In this document: one piece after another, positions 8,950 through 62,340 of the stretch | How positions within the stretch are numbered: position 1 is the first letter of the stretch | Layout: each line of letters starts with the position of its first letter | Assembly: GCA_964459325.1 (NCBI GenBank) | Contig: CAYWKU010000007.1 | Location: 83,422-147,421, forward strand | Direction of reading: 5' to 3' | Source: an uncultured bacterium | GTDB lineage: Bacteria; RBG-13-61-14; CAYWKU01 | Length of the DNA: 64,000 bases | The notes under the pieces: generated by a model | What the model was told of the DNA's origin: nothing | What the model saw: only the letters and a program-made list of their open reading frames with translations | Databases searched by the model: none | Program-made: the position numbers and the translations under genes

Positions 8950-9123
8950 ATTCCTTGCCTACAACCTCCCCACTCTTTAGGCTAATCATTTTATCCTGTA
9001 TTTTCAATGAAATTCCACAAAGTTGAGGAATATTCTACAGTCTTACTACAGCTTGTGTTGACATCCATCGGCCATCGATTACCCTAACCGCGACTTAACA
9101 AATCCGGCAGGGAGAGATTCATA

Positions 9124-10410
9124 ATGGAGTTGGAAAAAGCCATAGAGTTTCCTAAGGATTTCCTCTGGGGCGCCGCCGCCTGCGCTCACCAGGTGGAAGG
9201 CGACAACTTTTACAACGACTGGTGGGAATGGGAGCAGCAACCCGACAGCATCAAAAACGGCGACCGCTCCGGCAAGGCCTGCAACCACTACGAGCTGTTT
9301 GAAACCGACTTCCGCCTGCTCAAAGAAATGGGCGCCAACGCCCACCGGCTGGGCATCGAATGGAGCCGCATCTACCCTGAAGTGGACCGTCTCGACCCCA
9401 AAGCCGTCGACCATTACAAGAAGGTGCTCGAGACAGCGCGGGAAGCGGGCCTGGAGGTATTCGCCACCGCTCACCACTTCACAAGCCCCGCCTGGTTCGC
9501 GAAAAAGAACGGTTTCCTCGTCGAAAAAAACCTCGATTACTTCAAAAGGTACATCGAGCTTATCGCGAAGGAGCTGTCGCCTTACGTCACATACTGGAAC
9601 ACCATCAACGAGCCGGCGGTCTACGCCGTAATGGGCTGGATGGCGGGCGAATTCCCGCCCGGCCACCAGGACGTGGGCGACGCGGTGGACGTGCTCCGAA
9701 ACATCATACTCGCTCACGCAGCCGCATACCAGGGCCTCAAGGAATACTCCCCCAACGACGTAAAGGTGGGCATCGTCAAAAACATACCCCATTTCATACC
9801 CATGGACCCCGACGACCGGATGGACGTGGAAATGGCCGCCAGCCAGGACAAGTTCTTCAACGAATACCACCTGCACGGCATCGAGACCGGCGTGCTGCAA
9901 CTGGGCAAGGAAGAGGAGTTCCCCGAGCTGAAAGGCTCCACCGACTTCTTCGGACTGAACTACTACATGAAAATGATATGCGACAACGACCGCCCCATGG
10001 GCCCGATGACCGCACTGCCCGACGATAAAAAGACCCAGATGGGATGGGCGGTGCACCCGGACGGACTTTACGAGAGCATCATGAGGCTCAAAAAATACGG
10101 CCTGCCCATCTACATCACCGAAAACGGCATCGCCACCGACGACGACGCTTGGAGGGTCGAGTACATTACGCAGCATTTGCAGAAAACAAGGCAGGCCATG
10201 GACGACGGCGCGGACGTGAGGGGCTACTTCTACTGGTCGAACCTGGACAATTTCGAGTGGGCACAAGGATGGGAGCCGCGCTTCGGGCTTATCTCCTTCG
10301 ACCCCGAAACCTTCGAGCGCAAAATCAAGCCTTCCGGCCAATTCTACGGCGAATGCGCTCAAGCGGGCGCGGTAACGCCGGAACTGGTGGAAAAGTACTC
10401 CGAGGGTTAA
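9124..10410 (+). CDS. Glycoside hydrolase family 1 beta-glucosidase
   Basis: GH1 N-terminal signature FLWGAAACAHQVEGD, acid/base NEP motif (TYWNTINEP), nucleophile ITENG motif; 428 aa. Confidence 0.9.
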   Translation: MELEKAIEFPKDFLWGAAACAHQVEGDNFYNDWWEWEQQPDSIKNGDRSGKACNHYELFETDFRLLKEMGANAHRLGIEWSRIYPEVDRLDPKAVDHYKKVLETAREAGLEVFATAHHFTSPAWFAKKNGFLVEKNLDYFKRYIELIAKELSPYVTYWNTINEPAVYAVMGWMAGEFPPGHQDVGDAVDVLRNIILAHAAAYQGLKEYSPNDVKVGIVKNIPHFIPMDPDDRMDVEMAASQDKFFNEYHLHGIETGVLQLGKEEEFPELKGSTDFFGLNYYMKMICDNDRPMGPMTALPDDKKTQMGWAVHPDGLYESIMRLKKYGLPIYITENGIATDDDAWRVEYITQHLQKTRQAMDDGADVRGYFYWSNLDNFEWAQGWEPRFGLISFDPETFERKIKPSGQFYGECAQAGAVTPELVEKYSEG

Positions 10411-10536
10411 GAAAAAAGCCCGGACAAGCCGGTCATCGGTCATTTCTCCCTCCGGATAGTATCTGCGAGTCAGGACATTATCCATTTAACCGTAACAGAT
10501 TACAACAGTATACCTCGCCCTGCTCGAAAGATACCG

Positions 10537-31926: not shown

Positions 31927-33333
31927 TCACAGCCTCAGTATCTTCAGCCCCGCGCGCGCCTGCCTGATAACTTCCCCCGGACTACGGATGGTTTTCAGCC
32001 TGCGCAGGATATATGCGGGGTTGCGATAAAAGCTTCGATACGCTCCCAGGGTAAGCTCTATCAACTCCTCCCGGGACAGGTTCTCCTCCCAAACCGGCGC
32101 CTGAAAATCCTCTCGCGGATTGAGGGCGAACTCCAGCCACGGGTCGCCGTTCCACAAACCCTTCTCCTTGCCCATCCGGTAAAGGTCGGTACCCGGAAAC
32201 GGCATAAGCAGCGAAAAATGCACGTAATCCGGCTTGAGCTCCCGAGCCAGCCGTACCGAGCGGCGCACGGTGTCGGAGGTTTCTCCCGGTGAGCCCACCA
32301 GGAAGTACGCCAGAGTGCGTATCCCGGCCTTCCGGGCGTTCTCAAAGCCGGCGCGGGCGTCGTCCACTGTTATTCCTTTCCGGAGGGTTTTCAATATTTC
32401 CGGGTCGCCGGACTCGACGCCCAGGTGTACCCGGTCGCAACCTGCCCTTTTTAGTGCTTCTGCCAACTTGATGTCGAGGTCGGTGACCCGAAGCCTTACG
32501 TCGAAAGTCACTTTCAACCCGCGCGACAATATAAGCTCGGCGATTTGCATGGCCCGCTCGCGGTCGGTGGCGAAATTGTCGTCGTAGAAAAGTATCTCCC
32601 GGATGCCAAGCCGCAGGCATCGCTCCATCTCATCCACCACGCTCTCCGGCGAGCGTGCCCTGAATTTCCTCCCCAAATGAGGCCGGTCGCAGAAAAGGCA
32701 GTTGTAGGGGCAGCCACGGCTGGACATCATGGTGGTAACCGGGTTGGCGCGGGCCAGCACCGAGGTGTAAACCCGAACATCGGTAAGTTCTCTTGCCGGG
32801 AACCGTAGCTCGTTGAGGTCTTCAATAAAGGACGGCGGAGGCCCTCTGTGTATCTCGCCATCCGCACTCCATACCGCCCCGGAAGCCTCATCGGGCCCGA
32901 CATTATTCCGAAGACAATCCACGAGTGCCGGAAGGGCCCTTTCGCCCTCTCCCGTAATCACGTAATCAACTTCCGGCAAAAATGCGGTTTCTTCCGGGTA
33001 GATGTGGGGGTGTGGCCCGCCCAGCACTGTCACCGCTCCGGCTTCTTTAGCCATCTCGCAGACCACCAACACGTCCGGCATGGTGAAGCTGAGCGCGGTA
33101 ACTCCCACGACATCGGGCGCGAAGGATGAGATTTTTTTCCGAATGGTCGCGTCGTCCAGGCCGGGCGCCTGGGCATCCAATATTGCAACCTCGTCCCGCC
33201 CGAGCCGCTCGAGTTCACCGGCCAGGTAAAGCAGGCCTAGCGGCGGATTCGCTCCCCGACCCGATTCGACCTTCTCGGGAAGAATGGACGGTATCATGCG
33301 CCCGGAGGGCGGATGTAGGAGAAGAACTTTCAC
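31927..33333 (-). CDS. B12-binding domain-containing radical SAM enzyme
   Basis: GTG start at 33333 overlapping the upstream stop (GTGA); N-terminal B12-binding-like region (VKVLLLHPP...PLGLLYLAG), radical SAM motif SRGCPYNCLFC. Confidence 0.8.
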   Translation of the reverse strand: MKVLLLHPPSGRMIPSILPEKVESGRGANPPLGLLYLAGELERLGRDEVAILDAQAPGLDDATIRKKISSFAPDVVGVTALSFTMPDVLVVCEMAKEAGAVTVLGGPHPHIYPEETAFLPEVDYVITGEGERALPALVDCLRNNVGPDEASGAVWSADGEIHRGPPPSFIEDLNELRFPARELTDVRVYTSVLARANPVTTMMSSRGCPYNCLFCDRPHLGRKFRARSPESVVDEMERCLRLGIREILFYDDNFATDRERAMQIAELILSRGLKVTFDVRLRVTDLDIKLAEALKRAGCDRVHLGVESGDPEILKTLRKGITVDDARAGFENARKAGIRTLAYFLVGSPGETSDTVRRSVRLARELKPDYVHFSLLMPFPGTDLYRMGKEKGLWNGDPWLEFALNPREDFQAPVWEENLSREELIELTLGAYRSFYRNPAYILRRLKTIRSPGEVIRQARAGLKILRL

Positions 33334-34187
33334 GGCTTGTAACGCTTGCCGATAAGGTCGGCCACCACGCCGATGGCCAGCACCTGCAGGGCCGCCACCA
33401 CCAGCCCTATGAATCCGACGCCCCAGCCTATGGCTCCAAGGTAGTGCCATGCTAAACCTACCGGTACGGCGGCGATAATGAGGATTACCGCCGCCGGCAG
33501 AAACACCCGCAGCGGGTTGAAGTAAACCAGCGTCCTTATTATCAAAACCAGCATGTTAAGAGTATCGTGGAAGGGGCGGAACTTGCTCCAGCCCTTGCGC
33601 TTGCGGTAGTTGATGGGAAGATACTCCACGTGAAACCCCTCGGATAGAAAAACCAGGGTGATGGTGGAGGTGAAAGAAAATCCCGACGGAAACAGGTTGA
33701 TATATTTGAGCGCCAAATCGCGGCGGAAAATCCTCAACCCCGAGTTAAGGTCGGGAATGTGAGTCTCACCCAGGTAATTCGCCATCCCGCCGATGGTTTT
33801 CTTAACCGCCCTTCGCAGCCACGATTCCTCCACGTGACGTCCCGTTCGCGCTCCAACCACCATGTCCGCCTCCCGGCTCATTTCGACCAGCTTCGGTATG
33901 GAGCCTTCGGGGTAGGAAGCGTCGGCGTCTATTATCAGCACCCGGTCGTAAGCGGCGCTCCTTACGCCAGTTTTCAACGCCGCCCCGTAGCCCTGGTTGT
34001 GGCCGTGGGAAATTACCCGCACTCCATCGGCGGTCGCGGCCACCGAGGCGGTGTCGTCGGTGGAGCCGTCGTCCACAACAAGAATCTCGTGCTCAATGCC
34101 GCCGAGGGCGGAATTTATCTCCTCCAGCACACCGACGATGCCGGAGGTTTCGTTGTATGCGGGCACTATGACGCTTACGCCTTCCAT
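33330..34187 (-). CDS. GT2 polyprenyl-phosphate sugar synthase-like glycosyltransferase (ArnC/GtrB/DPM1-like)
   Basis: ATG at 34187 with GGAGG upstream (ORF-track extension to 34241 overlaps the upstream gene); VSVIVPAYNE, VVDDGSTDDT, C-terminal two-helix membrane anchor. Confidence 0.8.
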   Translation of the reverse strand: MEGVSVIVPAYNETSGIVGVLEEINSALGGIEHEILVVDDGSTDDTASVAATADGVRVISHGHNQGYGAALKTGVRSAAYDRVLIIDADASYPEGSIPKLVEMSREADMVVGARTGRHVEESWLRRAVKKTIGGMANYLGETHIPDLNSGLRIFRRDLALKYINLFPSGFSFTSTITLVFLSEGFHVEYLPINYRKRKGWSKFRPFHDTLNMLVLIIRTLVYFNPLRVFLPAAVILIIAAVPVGLAWHYLGAIGWGVGFIGLVVAALQVLAIGVVADLIGKRYKP

Positions 34188-43743: not shown

Positions 43744-45990
43744 TTACGGAACGCATCCCGGCGTGGCCTCAAAAAGCAGCCACGGCCCGGACGAACTCAA
43801 AGGTTGGAAATACTTTCCGGAATTCAAGATAGCTTTTACCGTTCGGGGATGCCACAAGTAGTATCCCCTTAGTTTGTAGCCCGGGGCCGCGTTTACCAGG
43901 AGCCGGCGACTGTCGTATTTCCGCATTATATTGCAGATAATTTCGTTGTTCCCCGCGGCCGTTACCAGCGCCGATGCGTCCCGCTCCCGCTCCGCCGAGT
44001 CCATAGCTCCTGTGGAAGGCTTAAGCCGGTCTATGACGTACACGTCCCGGTAAGCGGTCAGGCGATAACTGGTGAAAACGTCGGAAGTGACAGTGTGTCG
44101 CAGAGGCACGTCGTCCAGGAGCCCGGCGAACCTTTCGGTGTCCCATGTTACGTTTTCTTTCTTGTGAGCGTTCTCGTCGTGATGCCAGAAAAGCCCCTCC
44201 GTCGGCGCTTTGGTCATTATGAACCACGACTTGCCGGCGGCGCCCCTGAAGTAATCGGGCCGCACCGGGTACCAGGCCGCCGCCACGGCGAATACCAGCG
44301 CCGCCGCTATCAACGCGAGGCCCGCCCATCTTCGCGCCATGCCGGATAGCGCCCATATTCCCGCTCCCGCGCCGAGAGCGGCGAACATGGCCGAAAACCG
44401 CAAAGCCCGCCTCAAATACGCTACGTGAAGGGTCTTGCCGAAAATCCACGCCAGGTAGGGATGAAAAGCCACAAAACCCATGAAAAGCGTGCCCACTATC
44501 ACCACCAAGAGGGCCCGGTCACCTTTGGCGTACCTCAAAATCAGCCACGGCAAAGCCAACAGGCCAAGCACCGACCAGGGATACAGGGTCATGTCCGGGG
44601 CGGTATAAGAAAACGCCAGCGGGTGCAGCACGAAAAGCTTCGGGGTAATGAACCGGTTATACTCCCGCACCAGGCTGAACTCCTCCGGCCGCGCTCCCGT
44701 CGCTTCCATAACGCGCAATAGTGCAAATGGAGCGGATACCACTATGGCCGCGCCCACCAGGGCCGCAACTCGCTTTGCTTGCCGAGGATTGTTGGCCGCG
44801 CTTCGGTATAAAAAGGGCAACCACAAGGCGACCGGAATCATCACAAAAGCGGCGAACTCCCAGAACGACGGAGTGCCACCCACCCCCTGCACCGGGACGC
44901 CGACAAGCAGTTTATAAACGGCCCACACAACCGGGAGCACAAGCAGAAACCACCCGACCCTCCAGTTCCACCCGTATACCGGGCCGATATGCCCCCTGTT
45001 TGCCAGAAGGGTCACCACCGCCGTCATTGCAGCGGCGACTCCCGCCAGCACCCCCCACAACGGATGCACCAGGAAGGTTATCAGCACGGCGCCGGCGGAG
45101 CTTGCCAGCCTCCTCGATCCACCCTTCTGCATGTAATCATGCACAAATTTTATGCATATCGGGAAAAATATCAGCCACGCGGGGTCGGAGTTGTAGTAGC
45201 TGCACCGGCCCAACAAAATGAAACCCATCGCCGCGAAGTGGTATACTGAGTATATCACTGTAGAGGCCATCGCCGCCCGGCGCTCGAAGAAGGAGCCTGA
45301 CAAAGCGTAAAACGCCAGAATGGCCGCCGGTATGGTCAAAAAACCCGATTTTACGTACAGGGTAACCGGGTCCATCCTCAAGCCGGTGGAAATCGCGGCC
45401 CACATGAGCGCCCAGATGTTGTAGCTGTGTACCGGGTCGGAGCCTTCGTTGGCGAAAGCGATCGGAAAGTTGGCGGCAAACCCGCGAGTTACCAGCCTTC
45501 TGACCATCGTTATGTAGGTGTAGTAATCCCACTCCACCGCCCATCCGCGAAAGCTGCCCAGTTTCCAGGCGATTATTAAAGAAATGAAAACCACGGCCGC
45601 GAAGATTAACCCGACCCCGCACGGCTCCAGGTACCATCCCTTTTCCCACGTATGCTCCCGCTTTGAAAATACGAAAAACCACAAAAACAGCGCGAGCGCG
45701 ATTATCGGCATGACAATCAGCCCCGCATAAACCGGGGCCATTAATAGGAACATGGCCATCCCGACCAGCCCGAAAAGCAGGACTCCCATCACCAGGCTCA
45801 AGGGATAAGTCTCCCACGGGTCCAACGGCTCATAAGAAAGAAGTCGCAACAGAAGGTAGCCCGGAGAAACCACCATCCCGATGAAAACTATGGCTATGCC
45901 CGCCGTGCCGGACGGAAACCCGAAGAGGCATACCAGCCCCGCCAACGCGGACAGGCCGAGGGCGGCAAATATGTCGGTTTTTTTTCTCAT
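43744..45990 (-). CDS. Large polytopic membrane protein (~15 or more transmembrane helices), possible GT-C-type transferase or polymerase
   Basis: 748 aa, hydrophobic throughout with a C-terminal soluble domain; function unassigned. Confidence 0.45.
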   Translation of the reverse strand: MRKKTDIFAALGLSALAGLVCLFGFPSGTAGIAIVFIGMVVSPGYLLLRLLSYEPLDPWETYPLSLVMGVLLFGLVGMAMFLLMAPVYAGLIVMPIIALALFLWFFVFSKREHTWEKGWYLEPCGVGLIFAAVVFISLIIAWKLGSFRGWAVEWDYYTYITMVRRLVTRGFAANFPIAFANEGSDPVHSYNIWALMWAAISTGLRMDPVTLYVKSGFLTIPAAILAFYALSGSFFERRAAMASTVIYSVYHFAAMGFILLGRCSYYNSDPAWLIFFPICIKFVHDYMQKGGSRRLASSAGAVLITFLVHPLWGVLAGVAAAMTAVVTLLANRGHIGPVYGWNWRVGWFLLVLPVVWAVYKLLVGVPVQGVGGTPSFWEFAAFVMIPVALWLPFLYRSAANNPRQAKRVAALVGAAIVVSAPFALLRVMEATGARPEEFSLVREYNRFITPKLFVLHPLAFSYTAPDMTLYPWSVLGLLALPWLILRYAKGDRALLVVIVGTLFMGFVAFHPYLAWIFGKTLHVAYLRRALRFSAMFAALGAGAGIWALSGMARRWAGLALIAAALVFAVAAAWYPVRPDYFRGAAGKSWFIMTKAPTEGLFWHHDENAHKKENVTWDTERFAGLLDDVPLRHTVTSDVFTSYRLTAYRDVYVIDRLKPSTGAMDSAERERDASALVTAAGNNEIICNIMRKYDSRRLLVNAAPGYKLRGYYLWHPRTVKAILNSGKYFQPLSSSGPWLLFEATPGCVP

Positions 45991-50827: not shown

Positions 50828-52377
50828 TACATCTTCTCCTTCTTGTAAATATATATGATTCTTCCCTCTTTTTTTACCATGGACGCCGGCTTCCAGCCCG
50901 GAGGCGCGTTGTGGGGATTCAAAAGCGGCGCCATTTGAGGATGAAACGCCCGGATAAGGGTGCTGTCCGCGATTAGGTAATCGACATCCCATCTTCGCGC
51001 GTATTCCAGCACCTTCCGCAGAGGCTCATCCGGCACCGGTACCCTTTCGGCGTTTGCGAAGAACGCCACGTAAGGCTCGCGGGTCATTACCTTCACGCTG
51101 CGACCTTCGGATTGGCGGGCTATGAATTCCGCCGCTGCCCGTTGAGGTTTCACCCATTCGGCGTCCGGGTCGGGGCCGTATTTTACTGAGGCGACGAGGG
51201 GTATCACCACGATTAATAACGCTGCAACCCCCGTTTTCTTCCCGGCCATATCGAAAGCATGGGCGATTCCCCTTCCGGCCACGATAGCTCCGAGCGGCAC
51301 CAGCGGAACGTAGTAGCGGGGGCTGGTGCCCGTCATCGCCTGCAGGCCTACGGCGGGTATCCACATGCTTAAAAGGTAGCCTATGGGTTTCCCTTCCCCG
51401 GCGCCTTTCCTGAGTATGCCGAACAGCCCCAATCCCATGGCGGCGGCAAAAACGGGCGGGAAAATGACGCTCAGGTCTCCGTAAGCGTCATCCAAGCGAG
51501 TGAAGGCGCGCCTTACAACCGCTCCGGCGTTATTACCGAGAAACTCGATTGTACCCATTTCTTCGGCGGCCACCTGAGCTTTCAGCCTGCCGGTTTCCGG
51601 GTCGATTTTACCTTTTTGCCGTTCATGTTTGTCGGGGTTGGATATGATGCGATACATCATCCCCTGCTGGCCGGTAAGCCGCCAGCTTCCCTGCTCAAAT
51701 TTCAGGTAGACAACGTAAGGCGCCGAAAATATCAACACGCCCGCAATGAAGGCCGCCGTTATGATAATCTTTCTTTTGCGTCCTTTAGACGACGCAAACG
51801 CCCATATCGCCGGGATGACGGCTTCGAATATTCCCGCCACCCGGGTCAGGTATGCCAGCCCCAGGGCTGCGCCGGAAAAGCTCCAGCGTCTTGCGGAATT
51901 TTTCTCCAGCGCCGACCACCCGATGAAAACCCCGCCCATCAATAGCGCCGTGTAAAGGCTTTCTGTAAGCGCCAAACCGCCGTAATGGACCATCTGTGGA
52001 TGGAAAGCCACGATAAGGGCCGCGCCCACGGCGGCTGTATCGCCGAAGGTGCGCCTTGCGAGCAATCCCGTCAGGACTATCGCCGCTCCCGCCGCCAGCA
52101 CCGACACCAGGCACCCCGCTATTTCCAGATTGCCGGTAAATATGCCAAAGAAAGAGCTTGCGGCGGCGAAAAGGGGTTGATAGTATCCCGTCTCGCTGCC
52201 CATCGGCACGCTCAGCCCGCCTTCGGCGATACGCCCGGCCAGAAGCAGGTAAAGGCCGCTGTCCGGGTGGTATATTTTCCAGGGGGAAGTAAGGGCGCGT
52301 AAAAAAACGCCCGCCGCCGTTATGGCGGCAAGCTTTCCCGGAAAGGAAAGCAGGAGGCTGTAAGCGCCTCTCCTCAT
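50827..52377 (-). CDS. GT-C fold membrane glycosyltransferase (family 39/83-like, ArnT/PMT-type)
   Basis: About 11 transmembrane helices with a C-terminal soluble domain; adjacent to two GT2 genes. Confidence 0.65.
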   Translation of the reverse strand: MRRGAYSLLLSFPGKLAAITAAGVFLRALTSPWKIYHPDSGLYLLLAGRIAEGGLSVPMGSETGYYQPLFAAASSFFGIFTGNLEIAGCLVSVLAAGAAIVLTGLLARRTFGDTAAVGAALIVAFHPQMVHYGGLALTESLYTALLMGGVFIGWSALEKNSARRWSFSGAALGLAYLTRVAGIFEAVIPAIWAFASSKGRKRKIIITAAFIAGVLIFSAPYVVYLKFEQGSWRLTGQQGMMYRIISNPDKHERQKGKIDPETGRLKAQVAAEEMGTIEFLGNNAGAVVRRAFTRLDDAYGDLSVIFPPVFAAAMGLGLFGILRKGAGEGKPIGYLLSMWIPAVGLQAMTGTSPRYYVPLVPLGAIVAGRGIAHAFDMAGKKTGVAALLIVVIPLVASVKYGPDPDAEWVKPQRAAAEFIARQSEGRSVKVMTREPYVAFFANAERVPVPDEPLRKVLEYARRWDVDYLIADSTLIRAFHPQMAPLLNPHNAPPGWKPASMVKKEGRIIYIYKKEKM

Positions 52378-53303
52378 CCGGTCTCGTCCTCGACCCGCTC
52401 GAACCGCAGCAGGCTTATCTGCTCGGCCACCAGCCCCAGCAGAAACACTATCACGCCGGTCACCAACAGCAGCAGGGCGAGGTTTGTGAACCGGTGCCAG
52501 AGAATGAAGGTGTAAAGGTAATAGAGCACTCCGGCCAGAACGAAAAATATGCTTATGGGAAGAAACACCCTCATCGGCGCAAACAAAGTCGCCACTCTCA
52601 AGAGAATGATGAGAAACCTCAATCCGTCCCGGAAAGGGCGAATCTTGCTCTGACCGATTCGGATGTCGAAAGTTAAAGGTGCGAAGTCCACGCTGTACCC
52701 GGCCCTTATCATGGACAGGGTGATGGTGGTGGGATAGCTGAAGGAGTTGGGCAAAAGATGCAGAAAGCCCCGGGCCACTTTGCGGCGCATGACCCGGAAA
52801 CCGCTGGTCAGGTCATATATACGCCTTCCGGCAATGTAGCCTGCGAAGGAGTTCATCGCCTTGTTGTAGAGTTTCCTGCCGCGCGTCTGCACCGTGGCGT
52901 CGTCGCGGGCGCCGACAATCATGTCGTATCTTTCAATCCGCTCCACCAGTTTGGGTATGGCCTCGGGCGGGTGCTGGCCGTCGCCGTCCATGAGTAACAC
53001 GAACTCCCGGTTAGCATGGCGAATGCCGGTTTTGACCGCCGCTCCGTTGCCTTTATTGTAGGGGTGTTTTATCAAGCGGATGTCGGCGTCTTCGAAAAGG
53101 GATACCGTGCTATCGGAGGAGCCGTCGTCCACCACGATTATCTCGGCCTCCGGCCCGACGACTTCCCTCACCCGCCGGATAACGCTGCCGATGTTTCCCT
53201 CCTCGTTGAAAACGGGCATCACGACGCTGAGCTTCTTATAGTCGAAACGACTTTTTTCGGGGGAGGTTTTTGCTTCGTTCACTTTTTCGTTTTTCTCATC
53301 CAT
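52374..53303 (-). CDS. GT2 polyprenyl-phosphate sugar synthase-like glycosyltransferase
   Basis: Start taken at internal Met (MDEKNEKV...), alternative at ~53219; LSVVMPVFNEE, IIVVDDGSSD, MDGDGQHPP motifs; C-terminal two-helix anchor. Confidence 0.8.
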   Translation of the reverse strand: MDEKNEKVNEAKTSPEKSRFDYKKLSVVMPVFNEEGNIGSVIRRVREVVGPEAEIIVVDDGSSDSTVSLFEDADIRLIKHPYNKGNGAAVKTGIRHANREFVLLMDGDGQHPPEAIPKLVERIERYDMIVGARDDATVQTRGRKLYNKAMNSFAGYIAGRRIYDLTSGFRVMRRKVARGFLHLLPNSFSYPTTITLSMIRAGYSVDFAPLTFDIRIGQSKIRPFRDGLRFLIILLRVATLFAPMRVFLPISIFFVLAGVLYYLYTFILWHRFTNLALLLLVTGVIVFLLGLVAEQISLLRFERVEDETG

Positions 53304-54667
53304 CCGGCCAGCTCCATTCCACGAGAGAGTAGATTGACGGCCCCCCCGGCTCCACCGGCCCGGGCAAGCCTTGAAACGACGTAAGAAGGCCTGGCGTAAA
53401 AACTGAAATGTGCGGCTCTCAGCGCCTTCCTCAACTTTTGCGGCGTCCAATATTCGTCCATCACTGCCGGTCGGGCCAGGTCGGCGTCGAAGGGGTTCAT
53501 GGCGTCGGTCATTCCGAGCCAACCTTTTTTTAGAGCCTCGTCGTAAAGCGGGGTTCCCTCCACCGGCGACAAAACGCTGAACTGGGCCCAAGTAACCCCC
53601 CACCTTGCCGCGAACCGGGCTGTTTCTTTAACGTGCTCCAGTCTTTCACCCGGTATTCCCACCAGAAAGTAAGCCAAAACGTCCATTCCCGCTTGCCGGG
53701 TCATGGTTATAGCCTTCCCGATATCGGACGAGGAAGTGCCCTTTCGCAGGAACCGCAGGCTTTTCTCGTGGATGCTTTCGATGCCGTAGGAAACTATTCG
53801 ACACCCCGCCCGGCTCATCCAATCAAGCATCTCCGGGTACACGTCATCTACACGGGCCTCGCACTTCCATCGGATGTTAAGTCCTTCTTCGATGATGCGT
53901 CGGCAGATTTCAATGACCCGCTCGGCGTCCAGCGTGAAAAGGTCGTCATAAATTATAACGGAACGTACGCCCGAATCGCAAGCAATTTGCCGCAGCTCCT
54001 CCAGCACCCTGTCGGCCGAATGAAGCCTCGGTGCGGAGCCAAAAACGCTTTTGTCGCAGAAGATGCAGGCATGAGGACAACCGCGACTCGTGAAAAGCGT
54101 GGTCGCCGCACCCGGCCCGAGAGGGGGATAAGAATACCGGGAGTGCTCCAGGAGTCCGCGGGCGGGATACGGGAGGCCGTCGAGGTCACCGGAAGGAGAC
54201 GCAGGCGGAGTGTGTCCTTCAGGTGTCACCACTCCGTGTAATGCGAAAAGGTCGCCGTTGTTTTGTAACGTTTCCAGCAGGTTTGCAATAACGCCCTCCC
54301 CTTCGCCCAGGACGACAGCGTCGGCGGGAAAATCGCCTTCGGTTGTGAAGAATTCCGCCCCCCGCATGGTAACATGAGGGCCCCCGATGACGACGGTTTT
54401 CCCCGCGTTTTTCGATATTTGTGCGGCACGGCAGGTTAAGTCCCATGTCGGGGTCATGCCGGTAAGCGCCGCGACCTTCGCGTTTGAAGACCGAACGCGG
54501 TTTTCAAATTCCTTCCAGCTCAGGCCGAGTGCCGGAGCATCGACCAGCTCGGCATCATGGCCCGCCTCCATGCAAACCCCTGCCAGATAAAGCAGTCCAA
54601 GAGGAGGCACAACGAAAGGCGGCTTGCGGCCTTCGCGGGCCGGAGGCACTGCAAAAAGAACTTCCAT
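53279..54667 (-). CDS. B12-binding domain-containing radical SAM enzyme
   Basis: N-terminal B12-binding-like domain (PLGLLYLAG, VVIGGPHVT), radical SAM motif SRGCPHACIFC. Confidence 0.8.
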   Translation of the reverse strand: MEVLFAVPPAREGRKPPFVVPPLGLLYLAGVCMEAGHDAELVDAPALGLSWKEFENRVRSSNAKVAALTGMTPTWDLTCRAAQISKNAGKTVVIGGPHVTMRGAEFFTTEGDFPADAVVLGEGEGVIANLLETLQNNGDLFALHGVVTPEGHTPPASPSGDLDGLPYPARGLLEHSRYSYPPLGPGAATTLFTSRGCPHACIFCDKSVFGSAPRLHSADRVLEELRQIACDSGVRSVIIYDDLFTLDAERVIEICRRIIEEGLNIRWKCEARVDDVYPEMLDWMSRAGCRIVSYGIESIHEKSLRFLRKGTSSSDIGKAITMTRQAGMDVLAYFLVGIPGERLEHVKETARFAARWGVTWAQFSVLSPVEGTPLYDEALKKGWLGMTDAMNPFDADLARPAVMDEYWTPQKLRKALRAAHFSFYARPSYVVSRLARAGGAGGAVNLLSRGMELAGWMRKTKK

Positions 54668-54802: not shown

Positions 54803-56317
54803 TCACTCGCAGATTTTTTTAACAAACTCATCATTCAGATATTTGGAGACAATCTTCTTTTGAGCTTCATCCGGAGAGTTCATGGGGTTAATGCAGGTAA
54901 AAAAATCGAGGAGCCGATTTTTATTCAACTTCAAGGCTGAGGAAAACAAGGATTTCACCAAGCCTCTGGAGAAATGTCTGGCGACGTAATTACGACTGAA
55001 AAATGAACCGATTAGCGATGCCATTTCGATGAACCGCCCGGGTCCCAATGTTTCCTTCGCATTTGCCTGCCTTCTGTTTTTATAGGTGTATGCCGACAAA
55101 AATCGCTCGTGATAAAACATATCCTTAAACTGTACGCCCATTTTCTCGAACTTGCTCAGCCCTTTTACTCCGCGCATCGGGATAAATATACTGACCGCAC
55201 AAGAGTCACAAATCTCCGATTTCGGAAGTTTATTTTTGTTTGGCGAGCTATATGCGAGCGGGTATCCGCCGAGGAACTGGGCAGATACGTAGACACCGGC
55301 GTCATAAAGGATTTCGTATACTCTTTTATAATCCAAAGGAAGGGTATTATTCTGCAAGCCTTTTTCCATGGTCTTCAAGGCCTCGGCTTCATCAGTTTCA
55401 TAGCCAATCGCTGCCAGCCTTAACCCCGCGCGCCCCGCCAATTTAAACAACTCCGGGTGTTTTAAAACATTATCCGCCCTGATGAAAGCAAAAAAGTTGA
55501 CGTCTATATTTTCCTGTAATAGCTTTTCGAATATTCTTGATTCAATCTCGGGATTTTCGCCGAAGTTGTCATCACTGATAAGTATTTGAGTTATTCCGAG
55601 TTTTCTCAATCTTGCGATTTCCTCGAACACTCTCTCCGGCGATTTGTATCTTTGTCTCATATACCACATGGTATTTGAAACGCAAAAATTACACGGATGA
55701 GGACATCCGCGGGATGATTCCACAACCCCGGCGTAACCATTCGAGTTCAGATAAGCATTATATAACCTGTAATTAATGAGTTCCCATTTTGCCAAGGGCA
55801 GGCTGTCCAGATTTGCTATCAATTCCCTGTCGGGGTTCACGCGGATTTCGCCGTCTTCTGTAGAATACGTAATCCCTGAAACGTCCGATAAGTCCGTTCC
55901 CCCGTCGAGAGCTTCTATCGTTTCCTTAAAAGTAATATCACCCTCTCTTCTTATAACTATATCCGCTCCTTTGTTTACCCATTCCCTGTCGTAAAATGTG
56001 GAGTGATGGCCTCCGAGAATAATTTTTGTTTCCGGGTTGATTTTCTTTATAATCTTGATTGTAAGCTCGCTGTTTAAGGCGTGAAACGGGGAAACAACGC
56101 TCAAGCACACGACATCCCGCCCTCGGAGCTTTTCCAGGTATTTCTTTTTGGAAATCGGGGACACCCTGGCATCTAATATTTCCATCTCATGGCCGGAAAC
56201 GGAGGCGGCGATTTGAGGGAATGTGGCGGAGCCTACGTGAAAAACCTCGTTAAGAAAGTCGCCCGGATAAGGCCATGTCGAATATAATACCTTTGGATAC
56301 AGAAAGAGTATTTTCAT
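54803..56317 (-). CDS. B12-binding domain-containing radical SAM enzyme (AT-richer codon usage than neighbours)
   Basis: MKILFLYP N-terminus, IILGGHHST, radical SAM motif SRGCPHPCNFC. Confidence 0.8.
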   Translation of the reverse strand: MKILFLYPKVLYSTWPYPGDFLNEVFHVGSATFPQIAASVSGHEMEILDARVSPISKKKYLEKLRGRDVVCLSVVSPFHALNSELTIKIIKKINPETKIILGGHHSTFYDREWVNKGADIVIRREGDITFKETIEALDGGTDLSDVSGITYSTEDGEIRVNPDRELIANLDSLPLAKWELINYRLYNAYLNSNGYAGVVESSRGCPHPCNFCVSNTMWYMRQRYKSPERVFEEIARLRKLGITQILISDDNFGENPEIESRIFEKLLQENIDVNFFAFIRADNVLKHPELFKLAGRAGLRLAAIGYETDEAEALKTMEKGLQNNTLPLDYKRVYEILYDAGVYVSAQFLGGYPLAYSSPNKNKLPKSEICDSCAVSIFIPMRGVKGLSKFEKMGVQFKDMFYHERFLSAYTYKNRRQANAKETLGPGRFIEMASLIGSFFSRNYVARHFSRGLVKSLFSSALKLNKNRLLDFFTCINPMNSPDEAQKKIVSKYLNDEFVKKICE

Positions 56318-56825
56318 ACACGGAACTCCTCAATCGTGTTCGATGAAGCCTCCAAGCACTCATTTTGAACGCGAAAAGTTGCCCATCCGATTGGATTATG
56401 CCGGGCGAGCCGAAAGCGGGTATTCTTTAAAGAACACCTGTTATCCAAAATGGCCGGCAATTGCAATTTTCTCGCGATTCCGAATAAAAACTTTTTTGTA
56501 AACAGAATTGTCAACTTCTTAAATCAAATAGTTCTTCTTGTTTTTTAATGATAACCGGGACATGCCGTGAATTCAACTTTCCGTAAATCGTTTGATTTCT
56601 CTATTCGAGTTCCGCCACAATTGCAGTGATTTTTTCAGTCCCCCGGCAATCAGCCGAAAAAGAAAAAAACAAAATTCCAGCCTATGTCGGTATTTGCCGG
56701 TGAAGTATATGATTGCTATACTGACAACAGTTAAAAGGTTACCACGTGTCTTTCAGACGGAAGAGGTGGAACAAAACTAATGTTTACCAATCCAATAATC
56801 AGATAAGCGAAACAATCCTTTTCTC

Positions 56826-58589
56826 ATGATGCCTCGAAACTTTTCCCGTCTAAGCTCATCCTCTCAGTCAGACAACTATATCACGCTGACATTGCTGACG
56901 TTGATAGGAGCATTCGCGTACTATATTTCCTACGTTCAATACGGTATGATTCAAGTGGACGAGGGTATTTTTCTGGATTTTTCCATCAGGATGATGCGCG
57001 GCAGGGAATGGTTCGTTGACTTTTTTCCACCGTACGGCCCTCTGAACTTCCTCCCACTGAGTGGAATTTTTTCCATTACAGAGCCAAGCTTTTTCTTTTT
57101 CCGATTGTTTTACATATTGTTCAGGCTTTGCGGTTTATGGGCGATGATTTCCGTTTCCAGACGCCTGATGCCCTCCAAATGGGCGGTGTTGGCGATTTTA
57201 CCCGTGATTATAGCTCCCGGCCATCTGTTTAAAAGCGTTTTCCTCCTGATGCCCATGTTGATTTTGTGGCTGGTTTTTCGGGCATGGGAATCGCGCCGGA
57301 TGTTCTGGCTGTTCGTGACCGGATTAGCCGCGGGCATTTCTTTGTACTTCCGCTACGAGATGATTTTTCCACTATCCGTTATCGCGCTCTTGGGACTCGA
57401 GCTAGACCATTTTCGCCGGCATTTTAAACATCATGAGCGCTGGATTCGGCGTTTGATTAGTATCACGGGCGTATTCGCCGGGTTGATGTTACCGGCGTTT
57501 TTTTTCCCCGGGGCAGTCAATGCTCCTAATATTTTGGGGCGTGCTTTCTTTGGAGGAAAAATTCCGGCTCTGGGAGTGCCGTGGCCCGGGTTTCCAACGA
57601 CCCATAGCCCGGACCAAACAGCCACGTTTCTGGTATTGTGGGGGGTGCTTGCAATTTACGCCGGGGTTGGAGCGGATATTTTGCGCACTCTGTTTCGGGC
57701 AAGGAGCTATCCCGCATGGGAACACAGGCTGCTGGTACTCGTGGCAGGGACACTGTTTCTTTACAATGTGCTCTTTCAAAGTAATCTTGGCCACATGCTT
57801 CAAGTCTCGGCCCCCGCCTTTCTGCTGCTGGCGGACATCGGGCGACGGGCCGTTGTATACGGCAAGAACACAATAATGAAAATAGCATCGGGAGCGGTTC
57901 TTGCCGGAATCCTAGCCGCCTTCCTGATTTACGCCGTCTTTTTAACCAACTTGCCCGGAGTCGCCGGCATCGCCCTTCGCCGGATGATGGACACTCCAAT
58001 AACTTCGCCCCTGGGCACGGTATATTTTCACGGGCCGAGAGCCGGCCAAATACAATCAACAATAAATTATATAATGTCTCACACCGAGCCCGATGACCCC
58101 GTGCTGGTAGTGCCCAGGGCCACTCTTATCTCGATAATGTCGGAACGACCGAACCTTAACCCATACGATACCGTAGAAACTTTTCCCACATTTGTATCTG
58201 GTTGGAAAACCGTTAACGATTTTTTTAAAGCCATTACCAAATCGGAGCTTATCGTTTATTTCGAGCGGCCGACGAGATTGGAACGGCCCCGTGCCCCGCA
58301 TCAAAGAATGCGCAGCAACGACTTTATATTCGAGACGATCCTTCGAAACTACACCTTCGAAAAGCGTTTTGGAGAGTATATAATCCTGAGAAAAGGAAAA
58401 GACGAAACCGGCGCCACAAGAGCCTTCATTGACGGCTGGGAGGCGTATAAATACGGTCATTGGGAAAAAGCGGAAGGTTCGTTGAAAAAAGCCGTCGAGG
58501 CCGGGCTTTCCGAGTCCGAAATACGACCTATTCTAAAAAATATCAAACATTTCAAATCATTAGGATTATCTCGTCCCCCGCAATTATGA
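56826..58589 (+). CDS. Polytopic membrane protein, GT-C-like, with C-terminal soluble TPR-like region
   Basis: About 12 transmembrane helices in the first ~400 aa; only plus-strand gene inside the cluster; function unassigned. Confidence 0.45.
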   Translation: MMPRNFSRLSSSSQSDNYITLTLLTLIGAFAYYISYVQYGMIQVDEGIFLDFSIRMMRGREWFVDFFPPYGPLNFLPLSGIFSITEPSFFFFRLFYILFRLCGLWAMISVSRRLMPSKWAVLAILPVIIAPGHLFKSVFLLMPMLILWLVFRAWESRRMFWLFVTGLAAGISLYFRYEMIFPLSVIALLGLELDHFRRHFKHHERWIRRLISITGVFAGLMLPAFFFPGAVNAPNILGRAFFGGKIPALGVPWPGFPTTHSPDQTATFLVLWGVLAIYAGVGADILRTLFRARSYPAWEHRLLVLVAGTLFLYNVLFQSNLGHMLQVSAPAFLLLADIGRRAVVYGKNTIMKIASGAVLAGILAAFLIYAVFLTNLPGVAGIALRRMMDTPITSPLGTVYFHGPRAGQIQSTINYIMSHTEPDDPVLVVPRATLISIMSERPNLNPYDTVETFPTFVSGWKTVNDFFKAITKSELIVYFERPTRLERPRAPHQRMRSNDFIFETILRNYTFEKRFGEYIILRKGKDETGATRAFIDGWEAYKYGHWEKAEGSLKKAVEAGLSESEIRPILKNIKHFKSLGLSRPPQL

Positions 58590-58668
58590 ACAAGAGGCCG
58601 TTGCAGAATTATGATTTTTCGTTTGGGATGTGTTGACCTTCATCGTGCCGAAAAAGAACCCCGAATGG

Positions 58669-58717
58669 ACAAGGGGCTTCAGCCCCTTGAATTTCAAGGG
58701 GTTAAAACCCCTTGTCT
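58669..58717. terminator. Tandem GC-stem hairpins between convergent genes (candidate bidirectional terminator; member of the GGGG-TTAAAA-CCCC hairpin family)
   Basis: GACAAGGGGC-ttca-GCCCCTTG followed by CAAGGGG-ttaaaa-CCCCTTGTC; further hairpins and T-runs up to ~58870. Confidence 0.5.
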
Positions 58718-58901
58718 GGAAAAGACATTCCCGGGGAGCTACAGAAAAAAAGCCTTCTCTCCCCCTGAAGCCTGTTTTGCAACGGTCTCAACAAATAAAA
58801 AACTCCCGGCCGTCTCTTTCGGCCCGCCCTTTTTTCGTGATTTATTTTAGAAAAACAGGCTGCGGCTTTTTGTTCGGGAGGGCGAAATGCCGGGGTTTAT
58901 T

Positions 58902-60269
58902 TCAAGGAAAAGTTCCCCGGCCAACAAAACCCAGTCTATGGGCGTTATAACTCGAAAAATCTATAAGCTTCTTGGTATAATTCAAAACACGATAATCCCT
59001 TTTCGTAGACCAATCGAGTGCTACACTGAGGGGATAATGAAACCGTGTATATCTTTCCGCTTCGATACTGTAACGCTTGAATTCAGAATCCAAATTGTCA
59101 GAACTGATGTTGGGGAGAGGAACGTCGGCGTAAAACGGTATATTAATTATCGAAAACGGATATTTTTTATGAAGTTTAATAATTTCTTTTACCACACCTC
59201 TACTTGGTCTGAGTCCCGAAAAGGCGATAAAAACTGAGATACTAATTTCGTCAACTCGCCGAGCCCACTCGAGAATACGAGCAAACTGACTTAAGTCGAA
59301 ACTCCGCATCCAATCTACCACCGGTTGAAAAATCAAATGAACACTTGTAAAACAAGAATTTATTATTTCCAACTCTTCGACTTTTGGAAGACGGTAAAAC
59401 ATGTATTCAAGGGAAAAATTTCGCTTTTTCGTAAATATCTTATCGACATATCCCATAGAGGGATATTCCAGCGGATCATGGGACACTATGTATACGTATT
59501 GTATTTTAGAATCGGCATGAAATCTATCAAAGTCAGAGGCCACGGCTTCCGGAGACCTGAATACCATCCCCCTTCCCATGAGAGCTTTTTGGTACTTGAA
59601 ATTTCCCATGCATTCGCATTTAAACTGACACCCCCTGAATACATTAAGATATGGATATACGAAATGAGAAAAAATGCTCCGTTGGGACTTGTAAATCCAG
59701 TTTTGCAGTGAAGGGAACCAATCAATGGTGATGAAATCCATGGAATCGAATTCTTCGCCGGATATAGTATATGTGACCTCTCCGGTCATATCGGCGCTGG
59801 TAACATTTGGGGGAAGACCTCCGTCGTCGCCGTCCAAAATACGCCCAACAAGCTCGGGAAACGGGCGGTCGGCATCTCCGATAACCACGTAATCCACTCC
59901 CCACTTGTCCACCAGTTGGCGGTGAAAAATGCCGGCGGTGTACCCGCCGATAATTATGCGGGCCCGGGGATTGATTCGCCTGATGCGCCTTACAAGACGT
60001 CCGGCCGAGGCAAGCGAGTAGAACCAGTGAACATCCATGGCTATTATCTTCGCCCGGGCTATATCGGAATCGGTTACATCAAAATCGAACCTGCCGAGTT
60101 TGGAGCCGGAAACGGCGTTTATGAGGGCAATCGCCCCCATGGGCACCACGCGACGAAACGAATGACCGCCATACGGATGAATGTAAAGTACGTCCAGGTC
60201 CCTTTCGCTCATAAAGACCTTCCCCTCTAAGCTGTTATTCCATTCTTGGAACTCAAGCGGAGGCGACAC
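58902..60269 (-). CDS. Radical SAM-like protein with B12-binding-like N-terminal region and a non-canonical CX3CXC cysteine motif
   Basis: FRGCQFKCECMG sits where B12-radical SAM enzymes carry SRGCxxxCxFC; N-terminal DVLYIHPYGG...IIIGGYTAG resembles a B12-binding domain. Confidence 0.5.
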   Translation of the reverse strand: MSPPLEFQEWNNSLEGKVFMSERDLDVLYIHPYGGHSFRRVVPMGAIALINAVSGSKLGRFDFDVTDSDIARAKIIAMDVHWFYSLASAGRLVRRIRRINPRARIIIGGYTAGIFHRQLVDKWGVDYVVIGDADRPFPELVGRILDGDDGGLPPNVTSADMTGEVTYTISGEEFDSMDFITIDWFPSLQNWIYKSQRSIFSHFVYPYLNVFRGCQFKCECMGNFKYQKALMGRGMVFRSPEAVASDFDRFHADSKIQYVYIVSHDPLEYPSMGYVDKIFTKKRNFSLEYMFYRLPKVEELEIINSCFTSVHLIFQPVVDWMRSFDLSQFARILEWARRVDEISISVFIAFSGLRPSRGVVKEIIKLHKKYPFSIINIPFYADVPLPNISSDNLDSEFKRYSIEAERYTRFHYPLSVALDWSTKRDYRVLNYTKKLIDFSSYNAHRLGFVGRGTFP

Positions 60270-60377
60270 GGCAAAACCTTACCACATATAAAATAGCTCA
60301 CAAAATCAGCCGGTAAATTGCAAGCATGCAGCCGGCCGGTTAACGGGCCACTCGCCGGCCAAAACGCCGTATTCGGT

Positions 60378-61913
60378 TTATGCATTATACCAGGAAGGTT
60401 TCCTGCTGCTCATGTACTGTTCGCCGCTACCGGATAAGAGACCTTTAAGTTGTGCCCATTGAAATTTCAGCGCCACTTTCCAGAACCACCAGTACAAGTT
60501 CCTTTTGAAGGGATAGGGACTTACAAGCCCCTTAAAAAAACCGCCTCCTCGAAAGATGAATTTCTTCATCATGTCGTTGTATAATTCCAGCATTTCATTC
60601 CGCGTCATGTTCTTGCACTCAATGATAGGATTAAACCAGTCATACTTGGAAAAATCCCTTTCCATTATTATTTTCGCTTCCTGAGCGTCTTCCCAGAATT
60701 TGGTGCCGGGCAGGGGGGTGATGAAATGAAACGCGGGGAAATTCACCTTGCTCTCCAACGCATAGTCCAGAATGGCCATCATGGACTCACGAGTCTCGTT
60801 GGGAAAACCTACCAGGTATGTGCATTGACACCACACCTGGGGATATTTTCTTGCCATAAGCTTGCATGCTTCCTTGGCTGTTTCGGATGTGTAGTTCTGC
60901 TTATGCAGCATTTGAAGGTCTCCGGTGGTAGCCCGTTCCGCGCCGATGAGGATCATTTTCATCCCGGACTTCACCTGTTTTTCGAGAATGCCCAACTTTT
61001 CATCCCTCAAAAGCATGTCCGCCCTCATGAAAGCGAACCACCCTATGTCCCAATTGCGGCGCAATATTTCCGTCGCCCACTTATCATTCCACTCAGGATT
61101 CATATTCCAAGTGCCGTCCACCCAATTGAACTGCCGACTGCCGTAATCGGTATACAGCCGTTCCATTTCCTCGATGGTTTTTTCCACGCTCTTGGTGCGG
61201 TACATTGGGCTAGCAACGGGTTTGTCGCCTTCCATGTGCCAGGGACTCTCCTGAGGCCAGAAAGAACAATATGTACAACCGGAAGTGCACCCGCGAGAAT
61301 GCTGAACCGGAATGCTCTTTTTGAAAGCCCACAATCTGCCGCGCTGCCCGTATATCTCGTGATTCATAAGGTCATAGGCGGGCAACGGCAGGTCATCGAG
61401 ATTTTTTACAGGCTCGCGGAACGGAGTCCGAACCAGCTTTTCTCCGTCATGGTAGATCAACCCCTTAACCGTATCCGGGTTCGGCTCGGACCTCATCAAT
61501 TCCTTGAGCAACTCCGGTAAAGTGTCCTCTCCCTCACCGAATACCAGATAATCAAAAGGAGCATCATTTCCCAGGTACATATCCGGCAGGAAAGGATAAT
61601 GTCTCCCCCCACCTATTACCACACAGTCGGGATTGGCGCGCTTGGCTATCCTTGCCACCCTTTCCCCTTCGTTGGCGTACATTGTCTCTTCGCCAATACC
61701 TACGAAATCGGCCCTCTCATCATTTATCATCTTCTCCAGAGTTCTCCAACCCGTTCGGAGAGCGCAACAATCAATAATCTTGATATCCAGGTCGGGAATA
61801 CGTTCCCGGACAGTCGCCGCAAGATAGGGATAATTAAGCGGCATCCAGAAATTGTCGTCCATGTTTACGAATTGCCAATAGCGACGCGGGGACCTGACGA
61901 ATAATAACTTCAT
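60378..61913 (-). CDS. B12-binding domain-containing radical SAM enzyme
   Basis: Start taken at internal Met (MKLLFVRSP); VVIGGGRHYP B12-domain-like segment; radical SAM motif SRGCTSGCTYC. Confidence 0.8.
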   Translation of the reverse strand: MKLLFVRSPRRYWQFVNMDDNFWMPLNYPYLAATVRERIPDLDIKIIDCCALRTGWRTLEKMINDERADFVGIGEETMYANEGERVARIAKRANPDCVVIGGGRHYPFLPDMYLGNDAPFDYLVFGEGEDTLPELLKELMRSEPNPDTVKGLIYHDGEKLVRTPFREPVKNLDDLPLPAYDLMNHEIYGQRGRLWAFKKSIPVQHSRGCTSGCTYCSFWPQESPWHMEGDKPVASPMYRTKSVEKTIEEMERLYTDYGSRQFNWVDGTWNMNPEWNDKWATEILRRNWDIGWFAFMRADMLLRDEKLGILEKQVKSGMKMILIGAERATTGDLQMLHKQNYTSETAKEACKLMARKYPQVWCQCTYLVGFPNETRESMMAILDYALESKVNFPAFHFITPLPGTKFWEDAQEAKIIMERDFSKYDWFNPIIECKNMTRNEMLELYNDMMKKFIFRGGGFFKGLVSPYPFKRNLYWWFWKVALKFQWAQLKGLLSGSGEQYMSSRKPSWYNA

Positions 61914-62340
61914 GGTATCCTCCCGTTCCCGAAACATCTATCTCGTAAATACGAAGCTTAACAATTGAAAATAACAATCCGGCCCGCGAAATAAAAGCGG
62001 ATTTTCCACATTTCCGTCAGCTCTACGTAACTCCGAGCCGCCCCTCCTTGGAGTCCATGCTCCCAAGAAGGTTCCAAAGCCCCATCCGCCCCACTCTTGA
62101 CGCGAGTCGTGACAGTCCACCTGCTTGAAATTATACAATATCCTGCCCCTCAATTCAACTGAAACCCACCGGGGGGCTAACGTTTCGTATTGTGTGTAAA
62201 AGTAAGGACTTTTTATGTACCCTCCGCTTTTTGTTGTCAAATAAAAAGGCATTATTTCATCCCAGAATTTGATATTCTCAGCCCGATTTTGTTATGGCGG
62301 TTTGCATAAATCCGGCTTGGCAAATAGTTTAAATTGTATC

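Follow-up and report, generated by a model that had tools for sequence, protein, structure and literature searches.

A shortened CX3CXC cysteine motif in a member of an uncurated protein family with a B12-binding domain and a predicted radical-SAM-type fold

Altered spacing of the three cluster cysteines is tolerated in several radical S-adenosylmethionine (SAM) proteins, among them OxsB (CX4CX2C), HmdB (CX5CX2C), QueE (CX14CX2C), ThiC (CX2CX4C), and PhnJ (PMC4389238, PMC9204698). Here, we describe a gene in a 64,000-nucleotide (nt) stretch of DNA from an uncultured bacterium (GenBank assembly GCA_964459325.1, contig CAYWKU010000007.1, positions 83,422 to 147,421), hereafter the window, whose product (P0001, the target) shortens the second spacer to one residue (CX3CXC), whereas OxsB, HmdB, and QueE lengthen the first spacer and keep the CX2C turn; the motifs of ThiC and PhnJ lie near the C terminus. 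Since functional radical SAM proteins with other spacings are known, CX3CXC alone does not bar the target from the superfamily.

The best structural match to the target is TsrM (PDB 6WTE), a cobalamin-dependent, nonradical tryptophan C2-methyltransferase, which differs from it in sequence (14% identity), in its canonical CX3CX2C motif, in the size of its C-terminal domain, and in its substrate, tryptophan for thiostrepton, which is unrelated to the genomic context of the target. GrsA and GrsB, the ring synthases of glycerol dialkyl glycerol tetraethers, have AlphaFold models with a Rossmann-like domain, a partial TIM barrel, and a C-terminal helix (PMC13459092); by description, these class B enzymes of membrane lipids resemble the target in architecture and in envelope/lipid context, but they carry the canonical CX3CX2C. 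Among curated models, TIGR04190 (Ta0216-type B12-binding/radical SAM, function unknown) is like the target in domain order and in its RGCxxCxxC(Y/G)G-type Cys loop, whereas the family of the target is about 120 amino acids (aa) shorter and has motifs of its own (MDxHW, GGYTA, DWFP). Within the window, four BchE/HpnJ/HpnR-like class B proteins share the two-domain layout and the gene cluster with the target, but at 44-111 bits they score above the Pfam Radical_SAM threshold, and they carry canonical SRGCxxxCx[FY]C motifs.

The target contains the segment FRGCQFKCEC, with three cysteines and one residue fewer between the second and the third, encoded by GGG TGT CAG TTT AAA TGC GAA TGC ATG GGA (G-C195-Q-F-K-C199-E-C201-M-G). 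An earlier note made from the sequence alone had read the third cysteine as shifted by one against SRGC-type canonical motifs in the neighbors, and both observations hold, the first on the evidence of the DNA, of the flanks, and of an independent assembly, the second in three neighboring proteins (Table 1). In alignments with homologues (RGCxxxCx-C[YM]Gxxx Q...GR...RSPE) the target is in frame on both sides of the motif, so the difference reflects the clean loss of a single codon rather than a frame error. Across the family, conservation is 100% at each of the three Cys columns, and CX3CX2C followed by [YM]G is the norm, from which the target departs with CX3CXC-MG.

Spacing was counted in 70 members of the short, approximately 430-aa family with a motif match: 62 have CX3CX2C, and strict CX3CXC occurs in two, the target and P0016. 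Two others have C-x-C-C, which can be read either way, two have CX8CX2C, and CX4CX2C and CX3CX3C are found once each, while a wider set of 150 matches adds more insertions in the first spacer (up to about CX10CX2C) and a single CX3CX6C (P0143). Exactly two residues separate the second and third cysteines in >95% of relatives, and in every homologue found except P0016 they are at least two residues apart, nearly always as CX3CX2C; strict CX3CXC amounts to 2 cases in about 250 relatives inspected. A search of genomic loci over species representatives, a set from which the source genome is absent, returned canonical or longer spacings at 80 of 80 loci of relatives. The earlier note had taken a canonical motif in orthologues as a sign of a sequence or frame problem: the canonical motif is indeed near-universal there, but the in-frame flanks and the agreement of a second assembly speak against such a problem, and the variant itself, whose conservation in orthologues the note had also considered, recurs only in P0016. 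Loss of the aromatic residue before the third cysteine, which had been listed as a further anomaly, is correctly observed but carries no meaning, since F, W, or Y occupies that position in no more than 14 of about 70 family members. Within its family, the shortened motif is a real but isolated change, and it does not define a new kind of enzyme.

Elsewhere in this branch the second spacer has changed and persisted, as CX3CX3C (RGCxxxCxGRC) is common to a clade of relatives of about 590 aa (P0145, P0147, P0148, the last a 216-aa fragment, and P0172) whose mutual identity is 33-71%. In another relative, the 609-aa P0081, the third cluster cysteine is replaced by serine (RGCPLRCANSYGS).

The target is a member of an uncurated family (P0003-P0041 type) whose proteins, about 430 aa long, combine a B12-binding domain with a radical-SAM fold, and it aligns with them end to end. 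It is 30-37% identical to family members and 16-20% identical to the neighboring radical SAM proteins, and we therefore rejected the suggestion that it is a diverged paralogue of those neighbors, which belong to a different family. An exhaustive search of 1.84 billion cluster representatives yielded 881 relatives, of which 134, each a 50%-identity cluster, fell below an E-value of 1e-30, with a top identity of 37%; phmmer E-values of family matches ran from 1e-65 downwards. A word-index search with the target protein alone matched only itself and one relative at 28% identity. Conserved across the family are YIHP, MDxHW, IIxGGYTA, DYVVxGDAE, IPN, DWFP, and RGCxxxCxxC(Y)G..Q...GR....RSPE, and the target keeps every near-invariant residue, namely, H62, W63, G89, G90, A93, D107, G112, D113, L121, N136, F166, P187, G194, C195, C199, C201, R214, R219, D246, P276, F288, and P365.

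Of the NCBIfam models, TIGR04190 gives the best match to the target and to every family member tested, with scores (58-99 bits; target 68) that are all under its cutoff of 500, and membership of the target in TIGR04190 was rejected on that score; archaeal and Anaerolineae relatives reach only 222-265 bits. One relative is labeled "cobalamin-dependent protein" by NCBI, and we found no literature on the ~430-aa family, TIGR04190, or Ta0216. As a separate observation, TIGR04190-like genes recur as tandem pairs with distinct motifs (ARGCKYECSYCGGC... then ARGCDFECSYCGG...) in many Anaerolineae and Chloroflexota metagenome-assembled genomes (MAGs), at loci L035, L037, L038, L041-L043, L046-L048, and other Anaerolineae loci.

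By its sequence, the target has an N-terminal B12-binding Rossmann domain, a feature of class B radical SAM proteins. The family motifs of this domain are kept as YIHP (H12), MDxHW (D60, H62, W63), GG (G89, G90), and GDA[DE] (G112, D113). The known cobalamin-tail motifs of class B proteins are a Gly-Gly motif in strand 4 and a Gly-Glu motif near helix 5 (PMC9204698), whose counterparts in the target, placed by sequence and secondary structure, are G89-G90 (99-100% conserved) and G112-D113 (99%). The Cys loop is predicted to sit on a partial (beta/alpha) TIM barrel: an AlphaFold2 (AF2) model built on a 31-sequence alignment (pLDDT, the predicted local distance difference test, 88.5; predicted template-modeling score, pTM, 0.90; pLDDT 81-90 over the Cys-loop blocks) has a Rossmann domain followed by alternating strands and helices and, at the C terminus, by two long helices in a region that is hydrophobic in many homologues. 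Foldseek matched this model in the PDB to TsrM (E 2e-12), TokK, MiaB, and OxsB, and a PDB sequence-profile search returned TsrM first, as its only significant match, and a partial one (E 3.9e-4), whereas a PDB search with the single target sequence gave nothing meaningful.

The radical SAM fold, which the earlier note had left to structure prediction, is thus present in the predicted model, and the note's two further checks concerned curated families and a GGE-like motif. In Pfam, PF02310 scores above its gathering threshold (GA), but PF04055 reaches only 17.4 bits against a GA of 29.5, over model positions 2-73 of 166, and the TIGR04190 score is, as said, far below the cutoff. PF04055 at E ≤ 0.01 matches 8 of 31 family members, the target among them, and fails in the other 23, so the weak radical SAM signal is a family trait and not a sign of decay in the target. 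At the GGE position an Asp, D246, is seen, which an hhalign comparison of the family (probability 96.9%, 303 columns) places on the DD of IIYDDLF in the canonical neighbor at 53279-54667; this position reads D-S-E in TsrM and D-A-N in TokK (PMC9204698). The ribose, GxIxGxxE, and beta6 SAM motifs are not recognizable in the family at the sequence level.

We favor, at even odds, the reading that the deletion is real and specific to this lineage and that the enzyme, which is part of an uncharacterized, class-B-like family, still functions. With the loss of a single codon, the residue in front of the third cluster cysteine would have gone, and CX3CX2C would have become CX3CXC; the target would most likely still bind a [4Fe-4S] cluster with C195, C199, and C201, now set on a tightened loop, and would still work as a class-B-type SAM/cobalamin enzyme together with the class B radical SAM protein encoded upstream. 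Its likely substrate would be a membrane-linked glycan or lipid produced by the cluster around it, which holds GT2, GT4, GT-C (PMT_2), and LPG_synthase_TM genes. We infer cluster binding, cofactor use, chemistry, and substrate from what was observed of the sequence, the predicted fold, family membership, conservation, motif rarity, and genomic context. The broader proposal that a radical SAM [4Fe-4S] site can work with CX3CXC, which would make it the first whose second spacer is a single residue, and that this spacing arose at least twice independently in a widespread, uncharacterized family acting on envelope glycans or lipids, is offered more tentatively, and we lean slightly against it. Ferredoxin:thioredoxin reductase is a possible precedent for a [4Fe-4S] cluster with a C-x-C ligand pair, for which a literature search returned no paper.

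Several points weigh against a functional enzyme, and several speak for a rival explanation, unlikely in our view but the most serious of the alternatives: the shortened loop, no longer able to bind the cluster or place SAM, would have broken the enzyme, and the target would be either a recently inactivated protein that is decaying or a noncatalytic partner or scaffold for the upstream radical SAM protein. No clade conserves CX3CXC, as both carriers are singletons; the spacing may therefore not be viable over the long term, and the deletion may have happened recently and be harmful. Two unrelated singletons, with the relatives of P0016 at 83%, 57%, and 53% identity all canonical, are the pattern expected of sporadic deleterious mutations in a family that so strongly prefers two residues between these cysteines. 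The target also deviates at a second conserved position, W301, which is His in 79% of the family; degenerate copies such as P0081 exist; and a canonical enzyme in the same putative operon could carry the chemistry. We found no literature report of a one-residue second spacer, and the ~430-aa family has no characterized members. In a collection of about 15 billion proteins, no relative exceeded 37% identity to the target, which is too distant for dating its deletion or for measuring selection on it.

Against inactivation, the 436-aa open reading frame (ORF) is intact, and the target keeps every family column conserved at ≥90%, the three cysteines included. It matches 42 of the 52 columns conserved at ≥70% (family range 41-51, median 45), with W301 as the only notable substitution, and the His at this position is also missing in several family members with a canonical motif. 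In a neighbor-joining tree its root-to-tip distance of 1.04 is close to the family mean of 0.99 ± 0.13, and its long terminal branch reflects the lack of close relatives. The scaffold or catalytically dead role that the earlier note had entertained accordingly finds no positive support in the retained residues, the normal rate, or the GGE-like Asp, although it may still apply, as no clade keeps the spacing.

The other carrier allows a closer look at constraint. P0016 is 27% identical to the target, so its CX3CXC arose in an independent event, and it is identical across five samples; its coding sequence shows 0 differences on the five sampled contigs, a clonal state that makes a polymorphism test uninformative. 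Compared pairwise with its canonical, 83%-identical sister P0175, P0016 has a ratio of nonsynonymous to synonymous substitution (dN/dS) of 0.19 at a dS of 0.50, and Tajima relative-rate tests with three outgroups gave no rate acceleration (p 0.18-0.64). This comparison speaks for the view that purifying selection can persist on a protein with CX3CXC, but it gives no date for the deletion. Near the motif, P0016 and its sister differ at 4 of 12 residues in addition to the deletion (CDFDCD-CYGA versus CVFNCDSCEGS; L087:2596-3927 versus L012:4823-6157), a density above the 17% average that may reflect local compensation.

A third explanation, which we hold to be improbable, is that the whole family, the target included, uses its cluster in the manner of TsrM, without reductive SAM cleavage at the unique iron, and that the geometry of the Cys loop is relaxed as a result. 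TsrM provides the precedent, as the Glu of its GGE motif blocks the unique iron and no radical chemistry takes place (PMC9204698), and it is both the best structural match and the sole significant profile match to the target. The failure of PF04055 in most members, the unrecognizable ribose and GxIxGxxE motifs, and a second spacer that is more variable in this branch than usual (X1, X3, X6) would fit. However, SAM-binding motifs are highly variable in sequence, which makes unrecognized motifs weak evidence (PMC9204698), the true radical enzymes CysS, MgmA, and TokK match almost equally well, and the family is biochemically uncharacterized throughout. A sequencing or assembly artifact, in which the MAG has lost 3 nt from a gene that truly encodes CX3CX2C, is very improbable: the target is a singleton in public data and P0016 alone among the homologues found shares its spacing, but an independent Logan assembly (run SRR7048220) matches the window with 100% identity along 5240 nt that include the whole gene, the motif site has no homopolymer or simple repeat, an exact in-frame loss of 3 nt is atypical of short-read error, and the like variant of P0016 was reproduced in five different samples.

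Should the shortened motif of the favored reading be functional, motif-based searches (CX3CX2C, PF04055) would miss radical SAM proteins of this kind, and the rule of a fixed CX2C turn between the second and third cysteines would be looser than assumed; should the deletion simply be inactivating, the finding would be ordinary. Independently of the motif, the 134 clusters found make up a sizeable uncharacterized family, largely unnamed by curated models, whose genes recur in clusters of uncultured bacteria and archaea that also contain glycosyltransferases and several radical SAM genes, and this family deserves study more than the motif itself does.

Table 1. Features of the target gene and its surroundings, in window coordinates
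Feature	Coordinates	Strand	Basis or remark
Mechanical ORF, 455 aa from GTG start	58902..60269	-	
GTG-start extension of the mechanical ORF, probably untranslated	60213..60269	-	Homologue N-termini and public gene calls
Shine-Dalgarno-like GAGGGGAAGG, ending 5 nt upstream of the target ATG	60218..60227	-	Sequence reading
Target gene (P0001), 436 aa: N-terminal B12-binding-type Rossmann domain, radical-SAM-type partial barrel, C-terminal helices	58902..60212	-	
B12-binding-type Rossmann domain, about residues 5-140	59793..60200	-	PF02310 36.4 bits (GA 32.1), conserved columns
Radical-SAM-type partial (beta/alpha) barrel, about residues 185-360	59133..59660	-	PF04055 (weak), AF2, hhalign
Variant cluster motif C195-QFK-C199-E-C201 (CX3CXC)	59610..59630	-	Sequence; one-residue gap versus family
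D246, GGE-like position, end of barrel strand 2	59475..59477	-	99% conserved; aligns with neighbor DD
W301	59310..59312	-	Conservation analysis
Two long C-terminal helices, residues 371-426	58935..59102	-	DSSP on AF2 model
Canonical class B radical SAM gene upstream of target	60378..61937	-	SRGCTSGCTYC; PF04055 61.8 bits, PF02310 51.7 bits
Promoter-like site TTGAAT-17-TATAAT upstream of the two-gene unit	62130..62158	-	Consensus match only, no proof of function
Bidirectional terminator-like GC-rich hairpin between target and convergent PMT_2 gene	58808..58824		T-runs on both strands
B12-domain/radical SAM gene	31927..33450		
B12-domain/radical SAM gene	53279..54667		SRGCPHACIFC
B12-domain/radical SAM gene (class B)	54803..56317		SRGCPHPCNFC
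PMT_2 (GT-C) genes	Starting 34189, 38252, 50827, 56826		

The target likely starts at the ATG at 60212-60210, with which the N-termini of homologues line up in alignment, and the resulting length of 436 aa is that of the public gene-caller record P0001. The canonical class B gene upstream lies on the same strand across a 165-nt gap with no terminator-like site, which makes cotranscription with the target probable, and the terminator-like hairpin follows 78 nt past the stop codon of the target. Homologues of the upstream gene also adjoin family members in a Nanobdellota MAG (L009) and a deltaproteobacterial MAG (L029). In the former, a DPANN archaeon, the homologue is followed 2 nt later by a family member (L009:1-2758), P0026, which sits in the target's own 10-member clade in the tree, and this arrangement suggests that the two genes form a mobile module shared between bacteria and archaea.

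The two genes are part of a very large envelope-type cluster (about 30-62 kb of the window) that holds five B12-domain/radical SAM genes (four canonical and the target), the four PMT_2 genes, GT2 and GT4 genes, two LPG_synthase_TM genes, and one SAM methyltransferase (Methyltransf_23). Similar clusters surround relatives at L083, L084, and L085, with several class B radical SAM genes, methyltransferases, and glycosyltransferases at L084. This gene content suggests that the cluster tailors a membrane-linked glycan or lipid, without pinpointing a specific substrate. Four consecutive genes (54803-61937), namely, the class B radical SAM gene at 54803-56317, the PMT_2 gene at 56826-58589, the target, and the class B gene upstream of it, have a G+C content of 0.44-0.49 (0.47-0.60 at third codon positions, GC3), lower than that of the flanks (0.56-0.59; GC3 0.63-0.71), which suggests that the block at 54.8-61.9 kb was acquired from a lower-GC donor.

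Two long ORFs of the window are without a Pfam match, at 43744-45990 (748 aa, threshold 1e-3) and at 9079-10485 (468 aa, threshold 1e-5). The mechanical ORF of a GT2 gene at 52374-53603 (GTG at 53603) overlaps the 3' end of the radical SAM gene at 53279-54667 by about 325 nt, and the real start of this GT2 gene probably lies further downstream.

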